Below, in pieces: positions 24,669 to 45,423 of a DNA stretch of 45,423 bases (the stretch's first letter is position 1; every line of letters starts with the position of its first letter). The stretch covers positions 1-45,423 of IMG/VR virus record IMGVR_UViG_3300030106_005823; one strand, given 5' to 3'. Both the position numbers and the translations under genes were made by a program. The DNA comes from a virus (taxonomy: Duplodnaviria > Caudoviricetes). The notes beneath the pieces were generated by a model that saw only the letters and a program-made list of their open reading frames with translations, was not told where the DNA came from and made no database searches.

Positions 24669-24682
24669 GGTCTTGTACCTCT

Positions 24683-24711: not shown

Positions 24712-24757
24712 AAGGAGGAAGCAACAGTGCTTTAAGAAGGAGGGAGCAACAGTGCTT
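24712..24757. repeat. Two 21-bp direct repeats carrying anti-SD motifs
   Basis: AAGGAGG(A/G)AGCAACAGTGCTT at 24712-24732 and 24737-24757. Confidence 0.8.
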
Positions 24758-24770
24758 CAGGAGGCGGTAT

Positions 24771-25211: not shown

Positions 25212-25263
25212 TTTCTCTCTCCTTTTGCGAAACGTTAGTCAGTTGCTAAGGCTAGGCCTTGGC

Positions 25264-26259: not shown

Positions 26260-26278
26260 TGGCTACAGTTTCCTTTCG

Positions 26279-28959: not shown

Positions 28960-28962
28960 GGA

Positions 28963-29214: not shown

Positions 29215-29217
29215 GGT

Positions 29218-29703
29218 TCAGGCTCCTTGGAATTGATAGCGCTGGAACGTGGTGCCCGCAGCGTCGTAAGTGTCGATGGGCTCAAACCCAATGCGCTTTG
29301 CCCAGGCGTTGGTGAAGTACCCTTGCGCAATGTCGTCGACGTCTGCCCAACAACACTTCCCCCACCCCATGGCTTGGCCGGCCGGGCTGCGCGCGTAGCG
29401 AATAAGCGACTTGGTCAGGGTTACTTTGAACCGGTCTAGGTCACGATGAAGCAAGGTGGAAAAGTAACCATTTGAAACGCAAAACATATAGAGCATCACG
29501 TCATCTCGCTCTGGGTGCTGCACGCCACAGAACACCTCCGCGGTGGCAAACATCGCTAGCGATTCTTGCGGCGTCATCTCTAAATGCTTGGCTGCAAAGT
29601 CCAGGTCTTCAATTGTGCCTTGGTGCGGCTCAGCCATTAGCGCCGTAATGTGTGCTTCTCGCTCGGCTTTATCGAGCGCTGAGAAGTCTATAACTCCACG
29701 CAT
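29218..29703 (-). CDS. Hypothetical protein, possibly GNAT-fold
   Basis: ORF in operon; C-terminal WAKRIGFEP resembles the GNAT motif B end. Confidence 0.55.
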   Translation of the reverse strand: MRGVIDFSALDKAEREAHITALMAEPHQGTIEDLDFAAKHLEMTPQESLAMFATAEVFCGVQHPERDDVMLYMFCVSNGYFSTLLHRDLDRFKVTLTKSLIRYARSPAGQAMGWGKCCWADVDDIAQGYFTNAWAKRIGFEPIDTYDAAGTTFQRYQFQGA

Positions 29704-29773
29704 ACCCTAACCCCTTGACAGGTCATGGTCGCGGAGTGTACCGCCATCCTCGGGCAGTGACTAGTCAGTGGTT

Positions 29774-31273
29774 TCAGTAGGGGTCGTACTCTGAGATTGG
29801 AATGCCCGCGCCCTGGTCCCCTTGATAGCCAGGGCGCGACGGATAAACGGGCATGCAAAAGCTCAGCGCCAACGCGTCGCCATCGTCCGGAGAATCAAGC
29901 CCCCGCTTGCGCATGTCGTCCTTTGATTCAAGCACCAGACGTTGCTGGTTGTCGTATTTGTATTCAGGCGCTGTTAGGTCGGTGCGAAGGTCCGGGTCGT
30001 CCTCAATAAGAATCCCATCAATCATCGCTTGCTTAAGGTTGTCCCACATTTCTGCCCGCATGTTCACGTACCTAAGCGGGTTGATGGCTTTGCTGCCAAA
30101 GTTGACCTCGATGACTTCCAGGCCAAGCTGCCGGCATCGGTCGACTACCCCGCCACCCACGCCGCCGCCATCAATAAAAACCGCGTCGGAACGGTGCTTG
30201 CGGGCAATCTCCACGATACGTGCGGCCACCTGCATGGTGTCGATACCGCGAAGAATAAGCTTGTCGACAGTGCAATCACGGCCGCGTCGCACCCGAATTA
30301 CAGTGCGGTCTGAGCCGAAGCGCGCAATGTCTGCACTGACAACTACTGGGTCCGTCGGAGTGTTGGCGACGTCACCAAAGTCCACGCACTGTTCAACAAG
30401 GTCGGTGCCAATCAATTGCATGTTGCCTGCCCTCGGGAACTCGCCCTTAACGCGGACTCGAACAAAGTCGCTGTCTTCGCCGTACTGCTTAACCCACCGC
30501 TTAATAAGCGACTTGTTAGTGATGGCAACCGACCGGCTGTCGATAAACCTGCGGCGGTAGCTCGAACGGTACCGGCCTACCATGTTTTCGTAGAACCTGC
30601 CCTGGTTACGGGTTGGGTTGCCAAAGTCAAACGTCATTGGCTCACCGTCAGTTAGTCCACCCTCGCGCACCTCGAAGATTTTGTCCGGTATGGCCGAAGC
30701 CTCGTCAAAAATAAAGAACGGCGTAGAGCCGGCAGCGTGCAGCCCAGCAAACGCCTCAGAGTTCCGCTCCTCACACGTTTGAGCATCGCATCGCCACGTT
30801 TCAGGGTGAGCAAGGTGGTAGATGTTCAGCGACCCGCCGCCGCCGCTGTTGAGGCGGTACCAATGCTGTGTAATTGACATGCGGTGCCACTTCGCCAGTT
30901 CTGCCCAGGTCTTTGTCCTGAGCTGCTCGGCTGTGTTCGCGGTCACCACACCTTTTGCATCGGGCCGGGTGTCGAGTATCCACTTAATCAGCCACGCAAC
31001 AATGGCGCTCTTACCGATGCCGTGCCCACTTGCAGTGCTGTGCTGCTGCGGGTCGACAGCGGCAACGCCGTCAAAACACCGCCGCTTCACCTGCTCGCCG
31101 ACGTCGTTCAGAAACTCAACCTGCCAATCGTCAGGCCCAGTGAACCCAGCAAGCGGGGTGCCCTCGACTCCCCACGGGTAGGAGCCAAGCACATGGAGTA
31201 GAGGGTCGGCGTAGCATTCCGCTACAAAATGGGCAAGCTGCTCATCAATGGATTGAACGGTAACCGCACTCAC
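29774..31273 (-). CDS. terL: Terminase large subunit
   Basis: Walker A SGHGIGKS, Walker B IFDEAS, GNPTRN, nuclease DIARFGSD and SPDDGDALAL motifs. Confidence 0.95.
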   Translation of the reverse strand: MSAVTVQSIDEQLAHFVAECYADPLLHVLGSYPWGVEGTPLAGFTGPDDWQVEFLNDVGEQVKRRCFDGVAAVDPQQHSTASGHGIGKSAIVAWLIKWILDTRPDAKGVVTANTAEQLRTKTWAELAKWHRMSITQHWYRLNSGGGGSLNIYHLAHPETWRCDAQTCEERNSEAFAGLHAAGSTPFFIFDEASAIPDKIFEVREGGLTDGEPMTFDFGNPTRNQGRFYENMVGRYRSSYRRRFIDSRSVAITNKSLIKRWVKQYGEDSDFVRVRVKGEFPRAGNMQLIGTDLVEQCVDFGDVANTPTDPVVVSADIARFGSDRTVIRVRRGRDCTVDKLILRGIDTMQVAARIVEIARKHRSDAVFIDGGGVGGGVVDRCRQLGLEVIEVNFGSKAINPLRYVNMRAEMWDNLKQAMIDGILIEDDPDLRTDLTAPEYKYDNQQRLVLESKDDMRKRGLDSPDDGDALALSFCMPVYPSRPGYQGDQGAGIPISEYDPY

Positions 31274-31494
31274 GGCAGCGGGTCGTAGTCAGATACGTGG
31301 TAGTGGCCGTCTGGTGTCGCTATGCCGCCTGGGCACGGCGAATGCTCCGACGCAATAGTCCGCCGCGCCCCGCAGTTTTGACAGACTCCAAGCCCGCCAG
31401 CACCGGGTGGGGGCTTAGTCCAAACGTGAGGAAGCTGCCGTGATTGCCCTGCTAAATTTTGCGGCATTAGTGAGTGCTCTTCGGGTGGTTGCAA
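31270..31494 (-). CDS. Hypothetical protein with CxxC
   Basis: Overlap-coupled to terL; ends in SDYDPL, echoing the terL C-terminus SEYDPY. Confidence 0.5.
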   Translation of the reverse strand: MQPPEEHSLMPQNLAGQSRQLPHVWTKPPPGAGGLGVCQNCGARRTIASEHSPCPGGIATPDGHYHVSDYDPLP

Positions 31495-31682
31495 TGTAAA
31501 AACTTAGGCCGCGGGTCTGGGCTTAATGGGTCCACCACATAAAACAAGTCAGCTTCAGTTTGAACTAGCAAGAAGCTGCCAAACTCGCCAACGTAATAAA
31601 TAGAATCCGACTCTGCCAATTCCAACTCCATGGTGCAGACGGTTTCCCAATTATCACCCCAATCATTCCTCGTCAGACTCAT
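31467..31682 (-). CDS. Hypothetical protein
   Basis: ORF overlapping the ends of its neighbours; start uncertain. Confidence 0.45.
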   Translation of the reverse strand: MSLTRNDWGDNWETVCTMELELAESDSIYYVGEFGSFLLVQTEADLFYVVDPLSPDPRPKFLHCNHPKSTH

Positions 31683-32124
31683 GTGAGACCACCCCTTCAA
31701 TAACGCCTTTGAGTTGCGATGTGCTAGCAGGCGCAATATCGCGAAGAGCAACTAGGCGCTGCCTGCCTGCGCCAATTCTGTCGATGATGTCACCTACAGT
31801 GTGCCGCACCTCAGCTTCAATCGTTGTCGGCATAAGCCGTACAACGAGCCGAATAAACAACTCAGGATGCTCCCGCCCAAGCTTTTCTAGATACTGCACG
31901 CCGCCCAGGTTAGAAAACGCCTCGCGCACATGCTGCTGCATGTCGACAGTCATAGCGTTTTGGCTGCCCTTTGGCCTACCCAACTTGTGTTGAGCCGCGT
32001 TGTACTTCGCCCACTGGTTGCCTTTTTGATTAGGCTTTAGCGTCAGATCATATTCCACGCCGTCGACCACCCTAATGTCACGGGGCGTATTTTCAGTGCT
32101 TTGTTTAGTCGGGTTCTTGCTCAT
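31663..32124 (-). CDS. terS: Terminase small subunit
   Basis: GRPKGSQN, GG.QYL..L....P..F..L..RL.P motifs; upstream of terL. Confidence 0.75.
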   Translation of the reverse strand: MSKNPTKQSTENTPRDIRVVDGVEYDLTLKPNQKGNQWAKYNAAQHKLGRPKGSQNAMTVDMQQHVREAFSNLGGVQYLEKLGREHPELFIRLVVRLMPTTIEAEVRHTVGDIIDRIGAGRQRLVALRDIAPASTSQLKGVIEGVVSHESDEE

Positions 32125-32437
32125 CTCGTGATGATAGCGTAAGGCCAAGGAAATCCTCCAGTGACAAAGTGACTAGCCACTGCGTGTGGTTGCTTCTGTG
32201 AACGACGACCGCGACCTCTTCACTAGTAGCTGCAGCCTTGCACTGTTCGTACGCTGAGCGAAGGTTTAGCCGCTCCTGGCGCTTAATTTCAATGCATAGA
32301 GGGGGAGTGTTAACAAGGTCACGCCCGCCGTCCCGAGATTGAGCGAGGTTGCGTGCGACGTCGGGCCACACAGATTGCACAATCTTGACGACCTCTCGCT
32401 CTGCGGCCGCTCCCTTAGTTCTCTGCATTTTTCCCAT
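32105..32437 (-). CDS. Holliday junction resolvase (PD-(D/E)xK, Hjc-like)
   Basis: R.KGAAAEREV, GG.DL, IEIKRQE and W.V...LEDF motifs. Confidence 0.85.
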   Translation of the reverse strand: MGKMQRTKGAAAEREVVKIVQSVWPDVARNLAQSRDGGRDLVNTPPLCIEIKRQERLNLRSAYEQCKAAATSEEVAVVVHRSNHTQWLVTLSLEDFLGLTLSSRDEQEPD

Positions 32438-32528
32438 CTGGGGTCATCTCCTAGATAATGGTTGGAACCTGACAGCCGGACGCTCCTCGGTCTACAAAGG
32501 CTGTGAGGCCAGCAAGCTGGGTAGCTGG

Positions 32529-32828
32529 TCACTGCCCAGCTTGCGCATTTATCCTCTGACAAACTGGCTTAATGGTCGCGTCCACCCAAGCTGCAAGCTC
32601 TTCGCCGCCCGCCGCGCACATCGCACCGCGCTCACTTTGCCTGTTCAGCCGGCACTCTTGCACGTACACAGCTATTAAGAATGACCGCCTGCGCCCCCGC
32701 TGCCGCGGTAACTTATGGTTGAACACCTTTGCGTACACCGCATTGCGCACCTGTTTCATCCACACCTGCCAACCATCATCGCGCTCTGCAATAAACTCGC
32801 CGCCCTCATATCCAATATTCAATCGCAT
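32529..32828 (-). CDS. Hypothetical protein
   Basis: GAGGAG RBS; 99-aa ORF. Confidence 0.6.
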   Translation of the reverse strand: MRLNIGYEGGEFIAERDDGWQVWMKQVRNAVYAKVFNHKLPRQRGRRRSFLIAVYVQECRLNRQSERGAMCAAGGEELAAWVDATIKPVCQRINAQAGQ

Positions 32829-32867
32829 GGTCTAGCTCCTCGAAATTAGCTGATAGCACCCAGTTAC

Positions 32868-32968
32868 CCATTAACCCCCCAGGGTGGGGGATAGGTACTG
32901 GGGCGCTTCAGCGTTAGAAATTTTGCCGGGTGGTCAGGACCATAGCCCCCACCCTGGGGGGTTAATGG
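32868..32968. repeat. 23-bp perfect inverted repeat (candidate origin or packaging site)
   Basis: CCATTAACCCCCCAGGGTGGGGG at 32868-32890 and its exact reverse complement at 32946-32968. Confidence 0.85.
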
Positions 32969-32993
32969 CCTTCCCACCCCACCCTCCGCCTCC

Positions 32994-34928
32994 CTAGTCG
33001 TTTTTTGCCACTAACGCCTCTGCAATCACCCTGCCCTCCAGGTCTTCATACACAGACTCTGCCTCGCTCACGCTCGACAGCCTTACCGCCCCAATGTCGC
33101 CACCTTCGGGTAGCTCCACACTGACCATGCGCAACATCGTCGCCGGCAGTCGCCTGCCCTCGCGCACCTTTGCGCTGTCCAGCCAGATAAAACTGGTCAC
33201 CTCGTCGGGGAATCGCTCCATCACCTGATCGAACCTGCGCCGAGCATTGCGCGCTGCTTCTGTGTTTCCGCCCGGCAACTTCGGAACCCACGGTGCAAGG
33301 GTGAACCCCATATCAAGTGCGGTGTAGATGACAGAAGACCCACGCCACGCTGAAAGGTCACGGCGGTACCAGTCTGCCTGCGCGCTCTTCTCGCCCTTCG
33401 GCGCGTGATGAATATGAATGAGGGTGCATTCAGTCGACACCGCAATTCTCTGCAGCACGTCGTTTAGATGGTTCGACCCGGCCGCGTTGTTTTCATCCAG
33501 GCCCAAGCTCAGCGTGACGTATGGGTCAAACACCACCACCTTAATGTCGTGCCGTCGGATTAACTCAATAATCCAGTCGATATTTTCCTGGTTCTCAACC
33601 GTCTGGCCGTACTCATCCACCTCCACCAATCGAAGCGCCCCGCCGTCTTTGCCGCGCAGATAGATGCGGTTAGCCCTGGAGCTAAGCCCGTGTTCTCGCA
33701 CCGCTGCGCGCACCCGCCGCTTGATGTCGTCGGCACGGTCTTCGTTGGCAAACCACAGCACGTTCATAGGTTCACAGGTCTCAAACCCTAGTAGCTCCGT
33801 AGCCCCCGCGGCTAAGCAGACCACCATCGCCGCCATAAACCGCGTCTTGCCCACCGCTGAGTTGCCGGTAAACGACACCACCGACGATTGCGGGAGCACT
33901 CCCCGCAGCCACCACACAATGGGCTTGAGGTGCACATCGTGTATCTCGTCCAGCTCAATAACGTGCATCTCACTATAATCACGCGCTATGCCCGCCCTTG
34001 GCTTTCTAACAGGCTCTGAAGCCGAAAAGTCGACGCCGCTGAACGATAGCTCTGCAAGGCCGCTTACATCTATGTTCAACAGCGGGTCGCCAAACTTCTT
34101 GACCGCGCCATCGACCATCCGCTCGATGCCCTCAATCCGCGCTAACCAATCTTCATGCCGCGGGTGGTTCGAGGACCGCGCCACCGAATCATTCATAACG
34201 GCCGTCAGCTGCCGCACAACGTCATCTGGCTCTTGCCCATGGGTGATTGCACGAGCGCTTAACGTTCGCAGGCTGTCGTGGAAGTCCTGGGCACTGACTA
34301 GTCGCTGCACCAGAGTGGCCGTGTCGTCGCCGCTACCGGTGAACCCCGACATACCACTACCCCCCACCTCGACGTCGTCCAGCAACGCCATTGGGAACTC
34401 AGCAGCGGGGCAGGGTTCACCAGTATTGGTGTGTCGATCGTCGGGAGTTGAGTCAACATACCCGGCGCTTGGCGGCCATAAGACGTAGCCCCCCTCACCT
34501 TTAACGTCGACCCCCTCGTCTAGCTGCTGTGGCAGCCGGCAATCGGGCATCTGAAACAGATAGTGGAACCCGCCGTTTTGCGTAGTGTGAGTGCGGGTCT
34601 GCCTCAGCAAATGGTCGTTGGAGGTAAGCCACTGCAGCGCTCTACCTCCCTTGTAGGCGTCGACGTCTATGCACACGAGTCCGGTGGCGGTGCCCATCGG
34701 CACTGCTACCGAAACACCGTCGCCGGCCTCCTCAAACATCAGCTTGATTTTCTTAGCGTCAAGCGACGCAGCTTTGAATCCGCCTTGCCCCCGTCCGATC
34801 TTTTCGCCAAACAATCTCTCCAACGCTTTGTTAGACAGCGCCGGGCGTTTGGTTTTTGCATTGACGGGAAAGACAGGCACCCCGTCGCGGCGCGCGATTT
34901 GCACCGCGGTAATCGTGCTCTTAAACAT
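32994..34928 (-). CDS. Bifunctional primase-polymerase (Prim-Pol) fused to an AAA_25/RepA-like helicase
   Basis: PVFPV..K.P, GFKAAS, IDVD, T.NGG.HY.F and DVKGEGGYV motifs; Walker A GNSAVGKT, VVFDP and IHHAPK; AGGAG RBS. Confidence 0.9.
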   Translation of the reverse strand: MFKSTITAVQIARRDGVPVFPVNAKTKRPALSNKALERLFGEKIGRGQGGFKAASLDAKKIKLMFEEAGDGVSVAVPMGTATGLVCIDVDAYKGGRALQWLTSNDHLLRQTRTHTTQNGGFHYLFQMPDCRLPQQLDEGVDVKGEGGYVLWPPSAGYVDSTPDDRHTNTGEPCPAAEFPMALLDDVEVGGSGMSGFTGSGDDTATLVQRLVSAQDFHDSLRTLSARAITHGQEPDDVVRQLTAVMNDSVARSSNHPRHEDWLARIEGIERMVDGAVKKFGDPLLNIDVSGLAELSFSGVDFSASEPVRKPRAGIARDYSEMHVIELDEIHDVHLKPIVWWLRGVLPQSSVVSFTGNSAVGKTRFMAAMVVCLAAGATELLGFETCEPMNVLWFANEDRADDIKRRVRAAVREHGLSSRANRIYLRGKDGGALRLVEVDEYGQTVENQENIDWIIELIRRHDIKVVVFDPYVTLSLGLDENNAAGSNHLNDVLQRIAVSTECTLIHIHHAPKGEKSAQADWYRRDLSAWRGSSVIYTALDMGFTLAPWVPKLPGGNTEAARNARRRFDQVMERFPDEVTSFIWLDSAKVREGRRLPATMLRMVSVELPEGGDIGAVRLSSVSEAESVYEDLEGRVIAEALVAKND

Positions 34929-35004
34929 CTAGTTCTCCTGGTTAGGAGTCCGCACATTACCCCCCACCGGTAGGTTGCTGCAACTCAGTCGCTGATATAA
35001 CGTT

Positions 35005-35043
35005 GTTCCAATCGTTCTGGAACGTTCCAGCACAATTTGGAAC
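35005..35043. repeat. Nested palindrome in the divergent control region
   Basis: CTGGAACGTTCCAG (35017-35030) perfect palindrome flanked by GTTCCAA / TTGGAAC. Confidence 0.7.
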
Positions 35044-35085
35044 CCTGAACGCCAGCTAGCCACCGGTCGGACATCGAGACAGACT

Positions 35086-35322
35086 ATGCGCAGTTATTAC
35101 GTGAAGCTCAGTTACCCAAGTGTCAGTCGTAACTGGCAACGTGCTGAGCGAAGGGCAGACAAAAAGCGCGAGCGCCAAGCTGCCCGCCGGATTATTCAAG
35201 AAAACGACGGTGACCGGGAAGCGTCGTTTGACAAAGCTGCCCGCCGGATTATTCAAGAAAACGACGGTGACCGGGAAGCGTCGTTTGACAAAGAGGAAAA
35301 TATTTGTGCCCACACAGAATGA
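35086..35322 (+). CDS. Hypothetical early protein with internal 19-aa duplication
   Basis: GAGA RBS; AARRIIQENDGDREASFDK occurs twice. Confidence 0.5.
   Translation: MRSYYVKLSYPSVSRNWQRAERRADKKRERQAARRIIQENDGDREASFDKAARRIIQENDGDREASFDKEENICAHTE
35177..35293. repeat. Exact 57-bp tandem duplication
   Basis: 35177-35233 is identical to 35234-35290, plus a 3-bp partial copy. Confidence 0.95.
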
Positions 35323-35548
35323 TTTGTTGCGATTCTTTGATGAGCTAGGCGGCAGTACCGTCACTTGGGAGGTAAATAACGAAACTCAGTTGCATATGAG
35401 GATCACCAGCCCTGACGGCACGCGGCGAATTACCCGCGTACTTAACTTGGCAACGCTGATTGCTGATGGCACCAGCATTACTGCTCAACTAATGCTGCAA
35501 CTTAAAACTGCGCAGCGCGTGTTTGCCACATTAGAGGACGAACTGTGA
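35306..35548 (+). CDS. Hypothetical protein
   Basis: GAGG RBS before GTG 35306 (MPTQNDLLRFFDELGG). Confidence 0.55.
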   Translation: MPTQNDLLRFFDELGGSTVTWEVNNETQLHMRITSPDGTRRITRVLNLATLIADGTSITAQLMLQLKTAQRVFATLEDEL

Positions 35549-35796
35549 ACTCATCTGATTGTTGTTGGGAGGTTATCGAGCGTGGCATGGCAGAGGGCAC
35601 CGCATACATGATTACCCGTTGCAATTATTGCCACTACGAGACTGCGTTTAGAAACGCGCTATTCACTGCGGAGGTTAACGGCCGCTGTGTGCTCGGCGCT
35701 GAGCATCGTTGGCAATCGCAATCTGTTAATGATTTGGAGCACGATGATGATGAAATATCTGATGTTGATTGCACTACTGATTCCGTTCCCGGCTGA
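35545..35796 (+). CDS. Hypothetical Cys/His-rich protein
   Basis: GAGG RBS, GTGA overlap, CxxC motif. Confidence 0.5.
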   Translation: MNSSDCCWEVIERGMAEGTAYMITRCNYCHYETAFRNALFTAEVNGRCVLGAEHRWQSQSVNDLEHDDDEISDVDCTTDSVPG

Positions 35797-36160
35797 GGGT
35801 AAGCGGCTCAAGCATGAGGATGCGTACAACCGAGAATGGTGCGCATCAGTTGGCGGCAAGGCAGAAGTCGTAAACCCTGACAAGAGCCGCACAGATTGCC
35901 TGACTCTCGGGTATGCAATAGAAACTGATTTTGTCGACAAATTCTACGAAGCTATAGGCCAGTCTGTGCATTATTCGCGGATGCAGGAACGGCTTCCCGG
36001 CATCTACTTAGTGCTTGAAACAGAAGCCGATTGCGAGCGCCTTGTTAATGCAATGATTACGATTTGGAGGATAGGGGTGAAATTTGGCGCAGTGGGAGTT
36101 GTTCCAATCCGCGTTTGGTCAAACACCAACGACGTATGCAACAGTGGCACTAAAATGTAA
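35747..36160 (+). CDS. Exported protein with PD-(D/E)xK-like motifs
   Basis: Signal peptide MKYLMLIALLIPFPAEG; E..Y...WC...GG.AE..R.DCLT..AIE.DF..K.YEAIGQS..Y. Confidence 0.7.
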   Translation: MMKYLMLIALLIPFPAEGKRLKHEDAYNREWCASVGGKAEVVNPDKSRTDCLTLGYAIETDFVDKFYEAIGQSVHYSRMQERLPGIYLVLETEADCERLVNAMITIWRIGVKFGAVGVVPIRVWSNTNDVCNSGTKM

Positions 36161-36186
36161 TTTTTACTTAATCAGTGCCTGAGTTG

Positions 36187-36215
36187 TTGACATCAGGCAC
36201 TGACTAGTCGATACT
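36187..36215 (+). promoter_or_regulatory. Sigma70 promoter with paired operators
   Basis: TTGACA-17-GATACT; TCAGTGCCTGA (36172-36182) and TCAGGCACTGA (36193-36203) flank the -35. Confidence 0.75.
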
Positions 36216-36261
36216 TGCCTCGTAGCCGGCACCACCTGCACGGCCCAAGAGGACGACCGAC

Positions 36262-36621
36262 ATGCCCAACACCAACCACGACGGCCTTGAACTCCGTATC
36301 TGCCCTGAGTGTGGCGAGCATTTTGCAACGTCTCACCATTCCAAGCTGCATTGTTCTACCAAATGCCGCAAGGCTTGGAACAATCGCCGCATGACCCGCG
36401 GTGCTGAGCTGTACGACGCTTTCATGGCGCTCCGCTACGACCGTGGATGGGCGAAGACCGTTGGCCTGTGGCAGCTAATATGCCGGCTTGTTGCTGAGTG
36501 GCGGGCAGAAGACAACGAGAAAGGTCGCGAGTCCTACATTCGCCCTGACCGTTGGTACGAAGAGAACCGCGCATGGCTGCGCAGCGCCAACCTCGGCAAC
36601 GTCAACTGCGGGAGAAAATAA
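36262..36621 (+). CDS. Zn-finger hypothetical protein
   Basis: CPECG..F...CS.KCR..WNNRR..RGAELYD motif; GAGGA RBS. Confidence 0.75.
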   Translation: MPNTNHDGLELRICPECGEHFATSHHSKLHCSTKCRKAWNNRRMTRGAELYDAFMALRYDRGWAKTVGLWQLICRLVAEWRAEDNEKGRESYIRPDRWYEENRAWLRSANLGNVNCGRK

Positions 36622-36670
36622 TGAGTTTGGTAATGGTAAGCGTCTACATAGATACGTTCACATTCACTGA

Positions 36671-36913
36671 TTGACGACGATAAAAATGAATTTACACATC
36701 CAATGGGTATATGGTGGCGACAACGGCTACTGGCGCAGTGCAGAAGGACGCTTCGAGATTTCGCCCATTTTCATCGGACGTACAACTCCGCAGATGTACA
36801 GGGTTGAGGACAACCTGCTCAAAACCTCGACTTCGATGGATCTCTGTAGTCAGGCTAAGAAATGGGCACTCCGAACAGTGGAGAAGGAAGCGCAAGAATT
36901 CGCAGGAAAATAG
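36671..36913 (+). CDS. Hypothetical protein
   Basis: ORF in the early cluster; start uncertain. Confidence 0.5.
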   Translation: MTTIKMNLHIQWVYGGDNGYWRSAEGRFEISPIFIGRTTPQMYRVEDNLLKTSTSMDLCSQAKKWALRTVEKEAQEFAGK

Positions 36914-36951
36914 GTACACACAAACTGACCATTACCTAAGGAACTAGCAAC

Positions 36952-37212
36952 ATGAGCAAACAAGCAACATTCAGCAACGGTCAAACCGTCGTGTACAGAG
37001 GCAAGCGCCCGGTGACGGCGGCGTGGATGCTTACTGTGTCGGGTGAAGGCCGCGTCAACGAAGTCGTCACGACGGGGTTTAGCCGCGACTTGCAAGCGGC
37101 CACAAAAACAGCAACCAGTACCTCAAATTGGGAAAAACGTTGCTGGAGTGCTAATTCAAAGCGTTCTAATGGACAACGATTCATTTATCGAATTGAAACG
37201 GTAGCCATCTGA
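36952..37212 (+). CDS. Hypothetical protein
   Basis: AAGGA RBS; ATFSNGQ..YRGKRPVTAAW. Confidence 0.65.
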   Translation: MSKQATFSNGQTVVYRGKRPVTAAWMLTVSGEGRVNEVVTTGFSRDLQAATKTATSTSNWEKRCWSANSKRSNGQRFIYRIETVAI

Positions 37213-37283
37213 AATTCACCTTAACACCACACCAAAGCCCCGCTAGCCGGGGCTGAGCCAGTAGAAGCACAGGAGAACGCACC

Positions 37284-37478
37284 ATGCCAAAACGATGCCC
37301 CGCCAGCAACACCGTTTTGTGGGATATGACCTCCCACGAAGTCAGCCGCAGGCTGAACCGCCAGGAGCGGAAATGGGAGTGCAGGTGCGGGCGCACCGTG
37401 GGTCTGCAGAAGACGCCGAAATCAGGTGCAGACCTGAACGACTACATGGTTGCACGTCACAACCTCCCGAAAGACTAA
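37284..37478 (+). CDS. Hypothetical Zn-ribbon protein
   Basis: AGGAG RBS; C..S...CRCGR...H pattern. Confidence 0.6.
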   Translation: MPKRCPASNTVLWDMTSHEVSRRLNRQERKWECRCGRTVGLQKTPKSGADLNDYMVARHNLPKD

Positions 37479-37498
37479 AGCACACCAGGAGCAAAAAC

Positions 37499-37699
37499 AT
37501 GAAGAACGTATTTGGCTGGGCATACCCGGCAGGCGCGCAAAACGACCCCAACGCACCGTACAACCAGGGCGACTGCCCGTCAGATTACTGCGACGCATGT
37601 GATAGTTACGGCCATGACGACATTCAAATATACGTGCCGGTGCGGTTCGCAGAGCAGTGGTGCAAGGCTTGCATCGAAGACCACGAGAGCTATGAATAG
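37499..37699 (+). CDS. Hypothetical protein
   Basis: AGGAG RBS; YPAGA.NDPNAPYNQ motif plus two CxxC. Confidence 0.65.
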   Translation: MKNVFGWAYPAGAQNDPNAPYNQGDCPSDYCDACDSYGHDDIQIYVPVRFAEQWCKACIEDHESYE

Positions 37700-37914
37700 T
37701 GAAAAAGTTACGAGTGACGGTCGAGTACACCGACGGTACGCCCAGCAAGATGGGCAAGGACCTGGACCCGGAGCAGGTAGCTGCTGGCATTAGGTCGCTG
37801 CTCATGAAACTGTGCATGACCAAAAGTATGGCGGCCATTTACATCACCCGTGCAGATTGCCTGCAGTTTCTGTCCCGTGACGCCACCAGCAATTTGGAGG
37901 TTTCGCTCGAATAA
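37699..37914 (+). CDS. Hypothetical protein
   Basis: TAGTG coupling to the upstream ORF. Confidence 0.55.
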   Translation: MKKLRVTVEYTDGTPSKMGKDLDPEQVAAGIRSLLMKLCMTKSMAAIYITRADCLQFLSRDATSNLEVSLE

Positions 37915-37915
37915 C

Positions 37916-37944
37916 TTGCATCAGTCACTGATATATCTCATACT
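37916..37944 (+). promoter_or_regulatory. Sigma70 promoter with operator upstream of ardC
   Basis: TTGCAT-17-CATACT with TCAGTCACTGA at 37921-37931. Confidence 0.7.
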
Positions 37945-37991
37945 TGCACTTCAGCGGGCCACCTTGGCCCGCACTGAGGAGACCGACCACC

Positions 37992-38888
37992 ATGAAATTC
38001 GACATCTACCAGCATGTCACCGACACCATCATCGAGCTGCTTGAGTCCGGCACCGCACCTTGGCGTAAGCCTTGGGTTGGCGGGGGCTCCGCCTGCGAGA
38101 TGCCGCGCAACGCCACTACCGGGCGGCATTATTCTGGCGTCAATGTGCTGCTGCTGTGGGCACGCGCAGCCCGCGCCGGCTACACCACTAGCCAGTGGGC
38201 TACTTACAAACAGGCTTCTGTGGCCGGTGGTCAGGTGCGCAAAGGTGAGAAGGGCACGACTGTTGTGTTCTTCAAGTTTATTGAGGACAAGAAAGACCCG
38301 AAGAAGCGTATTCCGATGGCGCGCTCGTTCACGGTATTTAATCTGGACCAGATTGACAACCTCGACCACCTGCGCGAGCAGCCGGTTACGCCGGTTGAGC
38401 CCTCCGACTTTGCGCGCATCGCCGAAGTCGACCACTGGGTTCTGAGTCAGGGCGCAGCCATCAAGGTTAGCGACTTGGACCGCGCCTTCTATCAGCCCGG
38501 CAAAGACTTTATCCACATTCCGCGCACTGAGCAGTTCGCTTCTCAGCATGGATATTACGGCACGCTGCTGCACGAGCTGGTGCATTGGACCGGTCACGAG
38601 TCGCGCACTGACCGTCGCGACGGCATGGCGGGACGCTTCGGCGACGAGGCCTACGCGATGGAAGAGCTGGTCGCTGAGCTGGGCGCGGCGTTCCTCGGTG
38701 CGCAATTTGGCATCGACCCAAACAACACTCGCGACGGCATCGAGCAGCACGCCAGCTACATCAAAAGCTGGGTCAAGAAATTGCGCGAGGACAAGAAAGC
38801 TATTTTCACGGCGTCTAGCAAGGCGCAAGCAGCGGTTGAATGGCTACATACCAATGCCGCTGCAAACGTCGACCAGATGGCGGCCTAG
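37992..38888 (+). CDS. ardC: ArdC-like antirestriction protein (ssDNA-binding plus zincin)
   Basis: YQ.VTD.II..LE.G..PWRKPW, Y.G.N.L.L, W.TYKQ..GG.VRKGEKG, LHEL.HWTGH..R..R and YA.EELVAE.GAAFL motifs; GAGGAG RBS. Confidence 0.93.
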   Translation: MKFDIYQHVTDTIIELLESGTAPWRKPWVGGGSACEMPRNATTGRHYSGVNVLLLWARAARAGYTTSQWATYKQASVAGGQVRKGEKGTTVVFFKFIEDKKDPKKRIPMARSFTVFNLDQIDNLDHLREQPVTPVEPSDFARIAEVDHWVLSQGAAIKVSDLDRAFYQPGKDFIHIPRTEQFASQHGYYGTLLHELVHWTGHESRTDRRDGMAGRFGDEAYAMEELVAELGAAFLGAQFGIDPNNTRDGIEQHASYIKSWVKKLREDKKAIFTASSKAQAAVEWLHTNAAANVDQMAA

Positions 38889-38952
38889 AGCCACCGTCTA
38901 GTCGGTAACTGTTGCCGCCCGTCTGGGCGGCGTAATCACTCGGAGCACTACT

Positions 38953-39338
38953 ATGCAACAGCACGGACATCGACTGAACATGACACTTACTCGCAAGCAA
39001 TACCGCAAACTTGAGGACTGGCTTGAGCGCGCAAACAACAGCGTTGCGCATTACGACCTCAGGAAATTGCAGAAGAGGCCACCAATGCAATGGGGTTTCC
39101 GGTGAGCATCTCGAACATCGAAACTGCAGGTCACACGATGGGTATCCAGACAGGGTTTCAACGCGCGGGGGCTGACGGCACTACATCTGTCGGCAAATCA
39201 AACTTAACTCACAGGGTGGCTAAACTTGAGGCGCGTCTTGACCATCTAATAGCTTTGCTGGAAAAGCACGGCTACAGCCCTGGTGGTGATGAAGCTGAGG
39301 CTGCGGGTAACAATGGGGCTGACACGTTTGTCATTTGA
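38953..39338 (+). pseudogene. Probable frameshifted HTH-like gene (one-base indel near 39027-39060)
   Basis: GGAG-ATG 38953 ORF (..LTRKQYRKLEDWLER) appears to continue in the -1 frame as PQEIAEEATNAMGFPVSISNI, ending at 39338. Confidence 0.5.
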
Positions 39339-39343
39339 AAAAT

Positions 39344-39504
39344 GGATGATGCCCGCCATTATTGGGTTGCTCGTTCTTGCCAACATCGTGCAAGACCGCG
39401 TCCGGTCAAACACTGAAATGGATTTATCGATTGCCCGCGCCAATTTGGCGGAACAAAGCGCGGCGCTAGATTATTGCGAGAGGAGATTGCAGCAATATCA
39501 GTAG
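39344..39504 (+). CDS. Small membrane protein
   Basis: TM segment MMPAIIGLLVLANIV plus coiled coil; start approximate. Confidence 0.45.
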
Positions 39505-39568
39505 CTGACCTATAATACAACTCCCCGGCGTCATGCCGGGGCGCACAACACACGAGACACAAGACAAA

Positions 39569-40900
39569 ATGCTGACCCCTCTCCCCCATCAAGTTGAAGA
39601 CGCGCGCTACATGGCGTCGCGCACCGGCACCACCGGAAATTTCTCAGGCATGGGCACTGGCAAAACTGTGACCACGCTTGAGGCTTTGCGCATTGCCCGA
39701 GACACTCAGCCAGCTGTGCAGTCGCTTATCATCGCGCCGCCTATTGCGCTGCAGATGTGGGCCGACAGCGTCGAGGCTCAACTCGGCGTCACCTCCCAGA
39801 TTCTGAAGACCGGCAAGACCCGCATAGACGAGTCCGTTGCCGTCGTGGTCGTCAGTTACGCCATCGCCGCGAAGCGCCTCGACCTGCATCGCAAGTGGTT
39901 GGCCGTCATCGCCGACGAGAGCCACGCGCTCAAATCTGTCGAGTCTAAGCGTACCCGCGCAATCATTGGCAGCCGCGGCATCATCCGCGGTGCGACCTAC
40001 TTTTGGCCGTTGACCGGTACGCCCATCGTGCGTCACGCCGACGACCTGTACCCCTTTTTGGTCAACGCCGACAAGGACGGCATGCGCACGCGGTGTGGCT
40101 CGCTCGACAAAGCGCGCTTTGACCTTCAGTTCTGCATCACCCAGACCAAGCAGTACCACCCGCGGCAGAAGCCAAAGCGCGTGGTCGTCGGCTCGCGCCG
40201 CGGTGACGAGCTTCGCGACTGGGTCTACGGTACCGGCCTTGCAGTGCGCCGCACGCTGGCCGACGTCTGGGACAAAATGCCGCCGCTCAACAAGTCGACG
40301 CTGCGATGCCCGCTGACTATGACGCCAGAGCTGCGCGTCGCGCTGAAGGCTCTGGAAGGTATGCCGCTGTCGCAGGTCGAAAAGGCGCTGCAAGACGGCG
40401 ACCCGAACATGGCCGCCACGCGTCGCCTCATCGGCGAATCCAAGGTCAAGGCCGCGGCCGACTTCCTCATCGAAGAGATTGAAGCCGGCACCGGACCTAT
40501 CCTTGTCGGCCTGTGGCACCGCTCGGTCAGCAGCGCTCTGCGCGACCTGCTCACCGACAAGGGCATCAAGGTCCAGGTGCTAGACGGCTCGACCTCACTT
40601 GCTCGCAAGGGCCAGCTGCAGGACGACTTCAACGCCGGCCGCCTCGACGTGCTGCTCGGTCAAATCAGCTCGATGGGTGTCAGCCTGAACCTGCAGGCGG
40701 GCGGCAACCGTATCGTCACCGTCGAGGAAGACTGGAGTCCGACCATCATGGACCAGTTCTTTGCGCGCTTGCACCGCATGGGTCAAGAAAAGGCGGTGTT
40801 TGTGCAGCGCCTTGTCGCGGACAACAAGATTGATGCTGCCGTTGGCCGGGTCTCTGCTCGCAAGGCTCGTTTTGCTGCTGCAGTTAGCCAAGGCATGTGA
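39569..40900 (+). CDS. SNF2-family helicase
   Basis: PLPHQ, GMGTGKT, ADESH.LK, LTGTPI, G.SLNLQ and Q...RLHRMGQ motifs. Confidence 0.92.
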   Translation: MLTPLPHQVEDARYMASRTGTTGNFSGMGTGKTVTTLEALRIARDTQPAVQSLIIAPPIALQMWADSVEAQLGVTSQILKTGKTRIDESVAVVVVSYAIAAKRLDLHRKWLAVIADESHALKSVESKRTRAIIGSRGIIRGATYFWPLTGTPIVRHADDLYPFLVNADKDGMRTRCGSLDKARFDLQFCITQTKQYHPRQKPKRVVVGSRRGDELRDWVYGTGLAVRRTLADVWDKMPPLNKSTLRCPLTMTPELRVALKALEGMPLSQVEKALQDGDPNMAATRRLIGESKVKAAADFLIEEIEAGTGPILVGLWHRSVSSALRDLLTDKGIKVQVLDGSTSLARKGQLQDDFNAGRLDVLLGQISSMGVSLNLQAGGNRIVTVEEDWSPTIMDQFFARLHRMGQEKAVFVQRLVADNKIDAAVGRVSARKARFAAAVSQGM

Positions 40901-40911
40901 GGTTATCCAGT

Positions 40912-41883
40912 ATGAAAATCGACAAATTTCTAGAGCATTACGAAGACGGCCGCAGCCGGGTAGATGTAACTGTGTTTGCCACTGACCGGTCGAAGTACGT
41001 CGGCGGTAGTGAGATAGGGCAGTGCATCCGCAAGACTTGGTACGCAAAGCACCAGCCAGTGCCCGATAAAACTAACGGGTTTGCTGCGCGCGGCAAGTGG
41101 ATGGAGGGCTACGTGGTACGCACGTTGTTGGCCGCGGGTTTACCGTTGCGCAGCGCGCAAGGTGAGCAGATGGAGTTGACTGAGGGGCCATTGATGGCGA
41201 CGCCCGACGGGTACCTGGAGTTCAACGACGGTTGTCAGGTGGTCGAAATTAAGAGCGTGGACCCACGCACAAATTTTGACAACTTGCCGAAGTCTAATCA
41301 CATCAGCCAGCTTAAGCAGAGCATGACTCTGATGGCACGCAGCGGCAAAGCTGATTGCAAGAAGCACGGCGGAATTTTGCTGTACGTCGACGCCTCCGAT
41401 TACAGCCGTGTGGTTGCCAGCCCTGTCCCCTACGAAGATGTTTTTGACGCCCACAGCAAACGCGCGAATAGAATCCTGCGCGCTCGCACGCCCGCCAGAC
41501 TGGACCGCGAAGGTAGGGTGGGGGGAGAGTGCAGGGTGTGCCCCTATCGAAGCCCTTGCGGGGTGCTAGACGCACAGACTAGTCAGTCAGACCAGAAGCG
41601 CGCTAACCGCGGAAGCGTTCTTGACCGATACGTTCATGAGTACGCGAAGATTCAGACTGCTGAGAAAGCGCAAAAGGAACGCAAAGCGGAGTTAAAGAAC
41701 AGCATTCAGATGGAAATGCAGAACCGCAACTCTACGTCGCTTGTAGTCAACGGAGTGCCCGTCACGCTACAGCAGCGTAACGGCAGCAAGACTATTGACC
41801 GGAAGGCTGCGGCAGCAGCCGGCGTTGACCTTAGCCCATTTGAAAAAGTGGGCGCACCTTCAACGGTGTTAAAGGTCGGCTAA
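40912..41883 (+). CDS. Cas4-like PD-(D/E)xK exonuclease
   Basis: GGSEIGQC.RK.WY, ATPDG, VEIKS and C..CPY...C (Fe-S) motifs. Confidence 0.8.
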   Translation: MKIDKFLEHYEDGRSRVDVTVFATDRSKYVGGSEIGQCIRKTWYAKHQPVPDKTNGFAARGKWMEGYVVRTLLAAGLPLRSAQGEQMELTEGPLMATPDGYLEFNDGCQVVEIKSVDPRTNFDNLPKSNHISQLKQSMTLMARSGKADCKKHGGILLYVDASDYSRVVASPVPYEDVFDAHSKRANRILRARTPARLDREGRVGGECRVCPYRSPCGVLDAQTSQSDQKRANRGSVLDRYVHEYAKIQTAEKAQKERKAELKNSIQMEMQNRNSTSLVVNGVPVTLQQRNGSKTIDRKAAAAAGVDLSPFEKVGAPSTVLKVG

Positions 41884-41931
41884 TATCCCGCCGCCCGGCC
41901 GGTTAAGCCGGGCATCATTAGACACAACGAG

Positions 41932-42639
41932 ATGAATATTATGAAAGACCTTACTGCATACCTTGCGTCCACCGAAATTGCAGCGGTGGATAATGAAGCG
42001 CTTGCCAACGCCATTGTCGAGACGGTGGAGGACACCGAGTCTGGCACTGGCAGCAATTTTGATTTTATGTCGTTTAGCGGGAAGCGCTCAGTTTGGGAAT
42101 TAGGCCGCGACAAAGAGCAGCCCGAGGAAGATGAGTATTTTATCGTCGAGCCAAGTACATTCTCGAAAGGGTGGACGTGCTGGAAATCAAATCAGGTTGT
42201 GGGGCGGCACGAGTGGTTGGCGACAGAGCCCGAAAAAGCTGTCGCGCGTGATGACCTTGCCGACCACAACATCACTCGTGACGGTGATGGATGGAAAGAA
42301 ACTTTGTTGTTTGGATTAGTGCGCGTTGACAACTTGCGTGCAGTTAAATTCTCGACAACCAGTGTGTCGGGTCGCAACAGCGTGAAGGACTTGTTCATGA
42401 AAGTGGCGGACCGCATGCGTTTGAAAGAGCCGGCAATGCCGGTGGTGCAGTTAACCAAAGAAGAATTTACTGCGCAGGAGCAGAAAAACTGGAAGCCGAT
42501 ATTTGACGTCGCTGGCTGGCTAGAACCGCAGGACGCCAAGGCGTTTTTGCTTGGCGATATTGATTTGGATCAGGCCATGGACGGTGAGGAACCGAAGAGA
42601 GGCCGTAGGGCTTCAAAGAAACGCGCCGCGCGTAGGTAG
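41932..42639 (+). CDS. Putative ssDNA-binding / recombination protein
   Basis: Between exonuclease and polymerase; F..F.GK..W..G, GW.CWK, F.TTS.SG and PVV.L..P.F...GW motifs. Confidence 0.6.
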   Translation: MNIMKDLTAYLASTEIAAVDNEALANAIVETVEDTESGTGSNFDFMSFSGKRSVWELGRDKEQPEEDEYFIVEPSTFSKGWTCWKSNQVVGRHEWLATEPEKAVARDDLADHNITRDGDGWKETLLFGLVRVDNLRAVKFSTTSVSGRNSVKDLFMKVADRMRLKEPAMPVVQLTKEEFTAQEQKNWKPIFDVAGWLEPQDAKAFLLGDIDLDQAMDGEEPKRGRRASKKRAARR

Positions 42640-42651
42640 CTTACAAAGAAT

Positions 42652-42688
42652 TAGGCCCCGGCCGGTTGCCCGGTCGAGGCCTAGTTCT
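42652..42688 (+). terminator. Putative terminator after the SSB gene
   Basis: TAGGCC..GGCCGG / CCGGTCGAGGCCTA long stem followed by GTTCT. Confidence 0.5.
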
Positions 42689-42741
42689 CGATATATGTGT
42701 GTTAAACGTGCCGTGTTGTGCTTTGGTACCAGGAGACCATC

Positions 42742-44556
42742 GTGAGTGATGGAGATGACATTGTATCTAACTACCTCGGTAAGGGGTACAAGCTAGTCAC
42801 TAGTAAGGGGGCTCTTAGCTATGTCATTAAAGCTATGGCGAAGTCGTCTGGGGGCACAGCCCTAGATTTTGAGACCACAAGTTTGGAGCCTAGCGAGGGG
42901 CGGGTGCGTCTTGTATCCCTATGCAACCGCGGCGTTCGCGCGCTGGTTGACTTTGATTGCATCAAAGGCGGGTTTGAGGGGTGCGCCCGCATGTTTGACC
43001 TGGGCGGCAAATACATCGTATTCAACACCTTCTTTGAATCGAAGTGGTTTAATCATTACGGTGCCCGGCCTGAAATCATTGACGCATGGTGGCTGCGCTG
43101 CGCCACCCTTGGCGGCGGCCGTACATCCCTAGCTAGGTGGGTAGGCTTCGAGTTTGACTACAACATGGACAAGAGCCAACAGGTCAGCGACTGGTCAGCT
43201 GCTGAGTTGACTCAGGAGCAGCTTGACTACGCGTTTCTTGACGCCGCTTTTACGTGGGAATTGTGGGTGCGGTACGCAGAGCAGATGGACCAGGGACAGT
43301 GGGACGCTGCGCACCTCTTTAATGCATTGGTGCCCCCTGTTACGGAGATGCAGGAGACCGGCCTATTGCTCGACATAAAGAAGCACAAGCGCCTCACCAA
43401 ACGATGGAGGCGCGAGCAGCTTAATCATGAGCGGCGCGTGCGCGCGTTGGTGCCTGAGTCTGAGGTTAAACTCATTAACAGCAACGCCCAGTGGTCGGAC
43501 TACTTTGGTCGGGTAATGCCCGAGAGCTGGCTTAATAAGTGGCCGCGCACCGGAAAGTCTGGTCACTTGTCGATGCAGGGTGCGACATTGAAAGCGCTGG
43601 CTGCCAGCGCTCCAGTCGACAGCCCTTTGCGCGAGTGCTTTGAAGCGCTGGTTGAGTACAACCATGTCAGCAAGTACGTGTCCAGCTTTGGCGATGCGTT
43701 GACCACCGCTGCAACGATGCATTCCGACCATCGCATCCGGGCGCGCTACAACATTGCCGCGGCCAAAACTTGCCGCTTTAGTTCGAGCGCCCCCAATGTG
43801 CAGCAGGTGCCGCGAGGCGAGGACGTACGCATGTCGTTTGTTTCGCCGCCCGGCCGGGTCATTGTGTCGTTGGACTATAGCGCGATTGAGTTGCGCGTAC
43901 TGGCACTGCTCACCGAAGACGACCAGCTGCTTGAAGACGTTGTCTATGGCGATGTGCACAGCGAGGTTGCCGCGGTTGTCGCGGGGGCTCCTATTGACAA
44001 GACGACGCCCGAAGGAAAGGCCGCGCGAACAGCGGCGAAGGGGATATCTTTTGGCATTATTTATGGCAGCGGTGCCGGCGGCATTGCATACAGCATGCAC
44101 ACCAGCATCGAACGCGCGCAGTCGTTTATCGACTATTGGGCAGACCGGTATCCGCGCGCTTTTGATTTGCGCAACCAGATGATGGAAGAAGCGCGCAAGA
44201 CTGGCCGCATTCGCGTGGTTGATGGGGGCACCATTTGGATGACGCGCAAACCTGAGCTGCCAAAGTGCGCAAACTATCCTGTTCAGCGAGCCGCGTTATC
44301 AGTTATGGCGCGAGCTATCATTCGACATCACGCTGCGCTTATCGACCTGCGCAAGGACCGTGCGTACGCCAGCGTCAGGATGGCGGCCACTATTCACGAC
44401 GCCTTGATGGATGAGGCACCAAAGCGTTGCGCCAAGACGGTGCTGAATTTGATGGAGCGAGACATGACCGCCGGCTACCTAGACGTGTTTCCAGGCGCGC
44501 CGACTGAGGGGCTTGTCGAAGGCGGGATTGGCAAAAGCTGGGGGGCGCTGCAGTAG
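42742..44556 (+). CDS. polA: Family A DNA polymerase with 3'-5' exonuclease
   Basis: DFET (ExoI), YAFLDA (ExoIII), RFSSSAPNVQQ, motif A DYSAIELRVLA, motif B KGISFGIIYG, motif C IHDA; AGGAG RBS before GTG 42742. Confidence 0.95.
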   Translation: MSDGDDIVSNYLGKGYKLVTSKGALSYVIKAMAKSSGGTALDFETTSLEPSEGRVRLVSLCNRGVRALVDFDCIKGGFEGCARMFDLGGKYIVFNTFFESKWFNHYGARPEIIDAWWLRCATLGGGRTSLARWVGFEFDYNMDKSQQVSDWSAAELTQEQLDYAFLDAAFTWELWVRYAEQMDQGQWDAAHLFNALVPPVTEMQETGLLLDIKKHKRLTKRWRREQLNHERRVRALVPESEVKLINSNAQWSDYFGRVMPESWLNKWPRTGKSGHLSMQGATLKALAASAPVDSPLRECFEALVEYNHVSKYVSSFGDALTTAATMHSDHRIRARYNIAAAKTCRFSSSAPNVQQVPRGEDVRMSFVSPPGRVIVSLDYSAIELRVLALLTEDDQLLEDVVYGDVHSEVAAVVAGAPIDKTTPEGKAARTAAKGISFGIIYGSGAGGIAYSMHTSIERAQSFIDYWADRYPRAFDLRNQMMEEARKTGRIRVVDGGTIWMTRKPELPKCANYPVQRAALSVMARAIIRHHAALIDLRKDRAYASVRMAATIHDALMDEAPKRCAKTVLNLMERDMTAGYLDVFPGAPTEGLVEGGIGKSWGALQ

Positions 44557-44557
44557 C

Positions 44558-44585
44558 TTGCGTCAGGTACCGACCAGTGTATGAT
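44558..44585 (+). promoter_or_regulatory. Sigma70-like promoter with operator variant
   Basis: TTGCGT-16-TATGAT; TCAGGTACCGA overlaps the spacer. Confidence 0.5.
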
Positions 44586-44620
44586 TTTTGTTGGCTAATA
44601 AACCTCTGAGGAGACTGACT

Positions 44621-44941
44621 ATGCCCAAGGCTGAAGTGCCATTGGCGGAGCTGCTTATCCGCCGCAACGATCTGAAAGATAAGCTAGAGCGGGTGAAGCC
44701 GCTGACCAACCGAGACTTGTACGGCCAAAAGGTGCAGCGAATTTCTGTGTCTGATTCAGTAGACGAGGTTACGGTGCAAGTTCCTCGGCTGAGCTACGAT
44801 GAAATTGACGGCAATTGGAACCACATCTCACGTCAGTTACGCAAAGTAGACGCTTTAATTCAGCGCACTAATTGGGAGACTCAGGTCGCTATAGACCCAG
44901 AACTCCTACAAGATTATCGTGCGCCCGCATTGGAAAATTGA
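44621..44941 (+). CDS. DUF6847/DIP1984-like coiled-coil protein
   Basis: LAELL.RR.DL..KL N-terminus and LR.VD..IQ.TNWET.V C-terminus; GAGGAG RBS. Confidence 0.75.
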   Translation: MPKAEVPLAELLIRRNDLKDKLERVKPLTNRDLYGQKVQRISVSDSVDEVTVQVPRLSYDEIDGNWNHISRQLRKVDALIQRTNWETQVAIDPELLQDYRAPALEN

Positions 44942-44949
44942 ACGCGCAC

Positions 44950-44985
44950 AAGGGGCGGCACTAAATTGCCGCCCCTTACTTTTTC
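44950..44985 (+). terminator. Terminator-like hairpin after the DUF6847-like gene
   Basis: AAGGGGCGGCA-CTAAAT-TGCCGCCCCTT followed by ACTTTTTC. Confidence 0.6.
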
Positions 44986-45250
44986 AGGTGGCACCTTGCG
45001 CTGCGGCTCAGGGTTCCACCTGAAAAGGTGAGGATGTGTGGAGGTACGGGTTTGCCGGGTGTCCCGTAAACACCCGAAGCGATGGCCGTCGCTGTTGCCC
45101 GTAAGTTCTGGTAGGCCAGAATTGTGTAGTTACGCTGTTACTCCAAAGTCCCTGACTCCGAAGGCCCCTATTCCCGTAGCCCGTAGCTCCGAGTTCCCTA
45201 ACAACTCTTGTCCGTTTTCCGAAGGCACCGACCTCCAGGCCTCACTTTTT
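44978..45250 (+). ncRNA. Candidate structured non-coding RNA with a periodic C-tract loop
   Basis: Long-range pairing 45023-45045 with 45231-45250, a multi-stem junction at 45045-45121, and a TGTTA/TAACA stem enclosing eight C-tracts. Confidence 0.6.
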
Positions 45251-45251
45251 C

Positions 45252-45423
45252 ACATGAGGAGATTAGTAATGCGAATAGATGTTCTTGACCACGGCTACAT
45301 TAGCCTAGAGCACCACCTTGGCGGGGACTGCGCAGTAGTCGCTGCAGCGCGCGTCAGCTACAACAGCAACCGTAATCAAAGGCGCGAAGTTGACGCTGAC
45401 ACCAAGCTGCTGCAATACCTGTG
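45252..45423. repeat. Terminal direct repeat / circular overlap (copy 2; 5' end of thyX)
   Basis: Matches 1-172 with 5 transitions. Confidence 0.95.

Follow-up and report, generated by a model that had tools for sequence, protein, structure and literature searches.

The phage genome analyzed here carries a small DUF6847-like gene and directly behind it a structured non-coding RNA with a periodic array. This raises the question whether gene and RNA form one ribonucleoprotein system and which partner the array serves. The window, i.e. the whole stretch of DNA that was analyzed, is a complete virus record of 45,423 nt from a tailed phage; its genes include those for head, terminase, tail and primase. 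DNA polymerase A lies on one side of the locus and thyX on the other. Since thyX runs on across the ends of the record, the latter is circularly permuted. An initial annotation, made from the letters of the window, had proposed that the array is a multivalent binding track for an oligomer of the adjacent protein. The features of the locus are:

44559..44586, + strand: promoter candidate, TTGCGT, 16 nt, TATGAT, recognized by eye
44621..44941, + strand: DUF6847 gene, 106 aa, short phage form, with Pfam match and a predicted fold and homo-oligomer
44950..44984, + strand: terminator-like hairpin separating gene and RNA, its U tract interrupted
44974..45033, + strand: alternative hairpin of 28 bp, in competition with the closing stem for its 5' strand
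45021..45252, + strand: non-coding RNA of about 230 nt, from folding, homologues and RNA contigs at 45022-45210
45046..45076, + strand: H-type pseudoknot (45046-50 with 45063-67; 45056-62 with 45070-76), from covariation in homologues
45078..45093, + strand: hairpin, its loop the palindrome GGCC (45084-87); RNA-RNA dimerization is predicted here
45094..45098, + strand: conserved GUWGC motif, its GC likely pairing with GC at 45054-55
45104..45141, + strand: short variable middle with one hairpin, no tRNA-like module in the window copy
45142..45230, + strand: 12-unit periodic array, family register 8,7,7,8,8,8,8,7,8,7,8, last unit shifted by 1 nt
45269..45423, + strand: start of thyX, outside the gene-RNA system; rest of the gene at 3-707

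The gene product matched DUF6847 (PF20935) with an E-value of 1.1e-6 and 29.1 bits, above the cut-off of 27, over model positions 65-140 of 141, i.e. the C-terminal half. The DIP1984 subfamily model (NF038048) was likewise matched in the C-terminal half only and reached 28.5 bits against a cut-off of 70. The previous designation as DUF6847/DIP1984-like holds at the level of the Pfam family but not of the NCBIfam subfamily. With DIP1984 the phage protein shares the C-terminal QRxNW motif, and its fold weakly matches the solved member PDB 3KDQ (Foldseek probability 0.90, TM 0.52, E 0.71). DIP1984 comprises about 150 aa, whereas the phage protein falls into clusters of about 100 aa that are mostly viral. 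An identical protein is encoded by the metagenome contig L100.

The monomer was predicted as strand-helix-hairpin-helix-strand (pLDDT 77, pTM 0.61). Its helix-hairpin-helix topology resembles the prefoldin beta subunit, but there is no sequence likeness and the fold match is not significant (TM about 0.5, E 0.67). No RNA-binding fold was recognized in the fold searches (nothing reached E ≤ 0.001; the best Z was 7.4), where the absence of a family proves nothing. A model of four copies scored 0.54 against 0.01 for the best control, a pass that may come from likeness because the solved relative 3KDQ exists. Of the benchmark structures, 20 of 30 solved pairs came up to the score mark, as did 1 of 23 single chains. 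The four-copy runs shared at least 65% of contacts with a pLDDT of at least 64. Self-association of the short protein is thus a prediction from modeling. The confident contacts join residues 1-14 with 83-96, describing a dimer and not a ring, and the predicted interface takes in the conserved residues L8, A9, N84 and W85. Conserved basic residues are R15, R40 and R74, of which R15 and R40, outside the named interface, would be candidate RNA contacts. In a profile search 145 relatives were found, and over twenty of them are tandem two-domain proteins of 200-300 aa, which is consistent with a dimeric unit. P0003, P0008, P0013, P0015 and P0021 belong to these tandem forms, the genomic loci of which were sought and not found.

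A single-protein search of viral contigs returned no relative and a word-index protein search returned one. By tblastn of annotated phages we obtained 13 records of Vibrio phages (36% identity) besides six weak Salmonella rows; two Vibrio regions were fetched and both had a gap of 300-370 nt with repeated CCGA motifs behind the gene. A blastn search with the RNA against phages gave chance matches only. Loci were then fetched by profile scans in sets of 16, 80 (of 106), 80 (of 311) and 28, and after removal of duplicates and of loci with less than 420 nt downstream 109 non-redundant short-form loci were kept. Here, CCGA was found 542 times on the gene strand and 123 times on the other. In one Vibrio phage a second structured intergenic stretch lies upstream of the gene (L002:3845-3985), at a place where L001 has a short ORF.

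Conserved structure and a periodic array were present beside the homologues. A covariance model of the 5' domain of the RNA matched 90 of 100 non-redundant gene-first loci from phages and metagenomes, 83 of them at E ≤ 0.01 and all on the gene strand, and it also matched 18 of 27 loci outside the training alignment. The gene precedes the RNA in 88 of 91 matches, and 83 of the 91 start within 120 nt of the stop codon. After rebuilding the model without the window, 45041-45100 was the only significant match in the genome (E 1.6e-5); further short-form loci were matched in 17 of 17 cases and long-form loci in 0 of 27.

The linkage was found from the side of the RNA as well. An exact array pattern used with no protein reference matched 22 viral contigs. 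In 20 of 20 matches with enough DNA, five of them on contigs outside the previous locus sets, the gene was located upstream on the same strand, two others being cut by contig ends; as the pattern derives from gene-linked copies, divergent solo copies would be missed. The linkage is kept despite rearrangement (RNA upstream in L008, L022 and L180) and with other genes between the DUF6847 gene and the RNA (L025, L027 and L060). In L185 (3312-4375) the gene in between is SPFH-like as judged by eye, and a similar insertion is present in L060. A third recurring gene was not found, the largest true neighbor cluster covering 14 of the 109 loci.

Extensive folding behind the gene was confirmed, as none of 200 shuffles folds as well as the region 45015-45260 (z -2.8). 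Both closing stems (45021-33/45240-52 and 45039-45/45231-37) have pair probabilities of 0.8-1.0, and the hairpin 45106-45121 of about 1.0. Two other helices of the initial annotation have to be given up. The putative junction stem 45045-50/45098-103 has a probability of about 0.2, and 45046-50 pairs with 45063-67 in homologues; the stem 45136-40/45199-203, thought to close the loop of the array, has a probability of about 0 and would split the conserved array. The terminator-like hairpin that separates gene and RNA had been overlooked; in a scan for such hairpins one was found against 1.2 in shuffles, which is not beyond chance alone. The gene's own promoter candidate, noted before, is visible by eye but stays below the threshold of a consensus scan.

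A structure descriptor (H-type pseudoknot, hairpin and GUWGC) was found in 56 of the 109 loci at the threshold used. We aligned 80 copies by sequence alone (54 descriptor and 26 profile matches; L035 and L043 were dropped), and found 81% of the cells paired. Shuffles reached 60% and slid controls 32-48%; double changes numbered 341 as against 115. The covariance model was run because selection by the descriptor favors this pairing result. The closing stem is conserved and the H-type pseudoknot covaries in homologues, whereas the GUWGC-GC helix (helix 2) is paired in 95.6% with little covariation. A second small pseudoknot just 5' of the array scores in 55 of 95 copies and in 9.5% of shuffles. 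No gathering-level Rfam match except tRNA was obtained in the window or in 15 related loci; weak matches at E ≤ 10 reflected hairpin or terminator likeness and nothing meaningful.

The hairpin loop of the 5' domain is palindromic in 48 of 56 copies and occurs as nine different 4-mers. Mutual information revealed two inner loop pairs that are absent from the model (z 7.0 and 6.3), the second of them between adjacent bases. Since neighbors cannot pair within one molecule, this covariation is a dimer signature. Intermolecular bridges in OLE and GOLLD have been supported by the same reasoning (10.1101/2024.12.08.627333).

The array is an unpaired part of this structured RNA with fixed length and register. 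The C periodicity of the window is far beyond chance, as it was reached by 0 of 8960 other genome windows and 0 of 5000 shuffles, but instead of eight C-tracts in a 58-nt loop there are twelve units, and the conserved unit is YCCGAHY-like and not a plain C-tract. A 3' anchor was located in 95 of the 109 loci, the window being among the 14 missed because its end diverges. CCGA is found at distances of 10, 17, 25, 32, 40, 48, 56, 64, 71, 78 and 86 before the anchor, and 55 of 71 measurable arrays (out of 95) are 90-91 nt long. The period is about 7.6-7.7. Lag 15 is enriched and the commonest lag is 38, which suggests an array in two halves. Among the 47 copies in canonical register, YCCGAHY-like or GAAC/TAAC-ending units occupy the twelve slots and differ among slots in a position-specific manner. 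The window copy (45142-45230) matches the family spacing without gaps, and with a weight matrix from the other loci position 45137 ranks first in the genome. No Watson-Crick covariation was found within the array in 46 rows, and in 75% of 60 copies it folds less than shuffles.

In sampled bacterial genomes of three phyla DUF6847 was present in 8 of 151, 8 of 301 (5 over the cut-off) and 3 of 121. From early CCGA counts the long forms seemed to have no RNA, which was wrong: 17 loci showed a conserved RNA of another kind downstream of the long DIP1984 genes, with a periodic array and no Rfam match. Autocorrelation in 22 rows, one of them mis-anchored, gave a z of 8.5 at lag 7 and 5.3 at lag 14; four loci had no anchor. 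These RNAs have common end motifs and keep a period with a changed unit. Two distinct RNAs with a periodic array beside one protein family are the strongest argument that the array serves the protein. The short-form profile matches both ends of the long proteins, suggesting an internal duplication.

Three marine metatranscriptome runs from two studies each contained one contig identical to the window (45022-45210, 45038-45192 and 45022-45169; depth 3-4) and nothing else within 42500-45423. These three low-depth contigs are in agreement with a transcript, although such contigs give neither strand nor true ends and DNA carry-over is possible. Two of them, both from one study, start at the base of the closing stem. 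Only two RNA contigs of 151 nt, in X2, fell into 24000-43999, and missing cover there and over the gene is no proof of low expression. No promoter was seen before 45022, which points to processing of the RNA from read-through of the terminator-like hairpin. The competing hairpin 44974-45033, whose 5' arm is a 13-nt direct repeat of the RNA's 3' end, may serve this processing. Additional hairpins upstream of the RNA are also present in L001, L016 and L042.

We consider it probable (about 0.68) that the small DUF6847 protein assembles on the 12-unit array into a defined RNA-protein particle that dimerizes via the palindromic hairpin. Gene and RNA are a conserved two-part unit, and the RNA would be cut out of a joint transcript. 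The protein likely dimerizes, and the dimers would assemble into a ring or short helix with a predicted stoichiometry of about one subunit per array unit; the particle would stabilize the RNA. The core of the earlier proposal, a multivalent track for an oligomer of the neighboring protein, agrees with conservation, two-way co-occurrence, covariation, the lack of an Rfam match, the RNA contigs and the predicted self-association, while its junction stem, loop stem and eight tracts do not.

The proposed geometry is like that of TRAP, where one short repeat is bound per subunit of the oligomer (11 subunits and 11 (G/U)AG repeats; PMC4027176). However, there is no likeness in sequence or fold, and TRAP acts on mRNA leaders, whereas here we find a dedicated structured RNA with a period of 7.6. 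With respect to a TRAP-type ring, the modeling covered four copies, and the contacts predicted there are those of a dimer.

The middle of the RNA varies from about 50 to over 200 nt among homologues and often holds a tRNA or tRNA halves. Among 95 copies a T-arm was found in 53 and a D-arm in 38, the T-arm preceding the D-arm in 11; with the patterns used a D- or T-arm is missing from roughly 40%. ARAGORN called 34 tRNAs, most often Ile GAU, Gln UUG and Asn GUU, and the anticodon-loop tally was 109 versus 14.7 in shuffles, including 34 T-loops counted in error. A T-arm before a D-arm is the layout of YrlA, which is also a non-coding RNA beside its protein (Ro60). The pseudoknot and the array are not known as parts of Y RNAs; no Ro60/TROVE gene was among the recurring neighbors and no Y RNA was matched in Rfam. 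Provided that the particle exists, it might expose the tRNA-like middle, either as a decoy or reservoir against host defenses that cut tRNAs or to engage tRNA-binding machinery during infection; to this role we give somewhat less than even odds. The decoy idea follows from phage tRNAs that can counter such defenses (PMC11555353) and is weakened because the tRNA-like part is absent from the window copy and many others.

Alternatively, the RNA might fold and multimerize alone like OLE, ROOL and GOLLD, the array consisting of T-loop-like modules in a compact fold that grips tRNA elbows and the protein being an accessory bound elsewhere on the RNA. The commonest array unit resembles the heptamer consensus of the tRNA T-loop, and the slot-specific differences could reflect a tertiary fold of the RNA instead of identical protein sites. 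The palindrome switching would fit as well, and the DUF6847 RNA is like these large RNAs in phage location, tRNAs inside the RNA (GOLLD linker) and a palindrome-switching loop. We nevertheless judge this explanation unlikely: units spaced at 7-8 nt leave no room for closing pairs, the array lacks covarying pairs, and the bacterial versions keep the period and change the unit. The DUF6847 RNA is also smaller than these RNAs and differs from them by its periodic array and by the gene that constantly adjoins it; their Rfam models had no match in the window or the 15 related loci, none being near at E ≤ 10.

A type III-like toxin-antitoxin system, in which the RNA neutralizes a toxic DUF6847 oligomer, is clearly less plausible still. 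Type III antitoxins have pseudoknots and repeats, and in ToxIN, CptIN and TenpIN a terminator lies between the pseudoknotted RNA and the protein gene. Strict pairing of gene and RNA would be expected here too. Additionally, the long forms are patchy in bacteria, and one is named as hypothetical protein DIP1984 on an Acinetobacter plasmid (PMC10889530). However, antitoxin repeats upstream of the terminator and toxin gene were not found; the order is reversed to gene, terminator and RNA. The array units of 7-8 nt are not repeated pseudoknots, no nuclease or toxin family was among the family-model matches of the protein, and no endoribonuclease toxin fold was recognized in the fold searches, in which an absence proves nothing. 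The RNA antitoxin, one option of the initial annotation, therefore fares poorly.

That the array is a sponge soaking up Rho or another host protein, with the phage protein as a helper, is very unlikely in our opinion. About 90 nt are unpaired with an excess of C over G (2166 vs 1484) and a strong 15-nt lag, but the commonest base is A and the register, exact to the single nucleotide, is stricter than rut sites need and the same across hosts of very different GC content. We give hardly any credence to a DNA-level role of the element, as origin iterons or as an operator array, or to an array serving as tmRNA-like frame or template, for although the repeats adjoin replication genes here and 90 nt is divisible by three, the covariation of the 5' domain is G-U-tolerant on one strand, contigs come from RNA libraries, a period of 7.6 is off the DNA helix pitch, stops interrupt 95, 86 and 78 of the 95 arrays, depending on the frame, so that no frame or tag is open, no tmRNA was called, and no reverse transcriptase as in retrons or DRT systems recurs in the 109 loci, the window's neighbors being DNA polymerase A and ThyX.

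For the assembly of the protein on the array this leaves the question of novelty. No function or RNA partner was found in the literature searched on DUF6847, DIP1984, PF20935, NF038048 and 3KDQ. In line with the initial annotation, no paper or Rfam family on the gene-RNA pair was found, and the supplementary files searched of PMC10690425 and PMC8632094 held no motif or family match; an unnamed candidate in large motif surveys is possible. The conserved gene-RNA system is thus apparently undescribed so far. More tentatively, DUF6847 may stand for an RNP class of phages and bacteria whose RNA arrays are matched to the ring size of the protein (twelve units in phages, about eight in long bacterial forms), with phage versions that dimerize and carry swappable tRNA modules as an anti-defense payload; this wider view we hold as possible rather than probable.

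The pair offers an RNA partner for a family that has a solved structure but no assigned function, and it adds two non-coding RNA families missing from Rfam. An array that is nucleotide-exact in length and register yet loose in sequence is unusual. With two small parts in about 550 nt a sharp and cheap test is feasible. If the middle is a swappable payload, this would bear on why phages carry tRNA-like sequences and would represent a natural modular RNA scaffold.

Some further observations were made. The bacterial long-form RNAs (L189-L207, L230-L243 and L248) are about 200 nt long with a 7-nt array and sometimes a T-arm. In L231/L239 and in L232/L238, one genome has two DIP1984 gene-RNA units at a distance of about 2 kb, the second RNA being without the G-rich 3' motif. 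The structured downstream regions of L187, L193 and L191, myxococcal and one other long or atypical form, fit neither RNA type. Elsewhere in the window, an ArdC-like anti-restriction protein is encoded in the early region (37944-38888) and a very long ORF of 3195 aa lies on the minus strand amid the virion genes (7896-17483).
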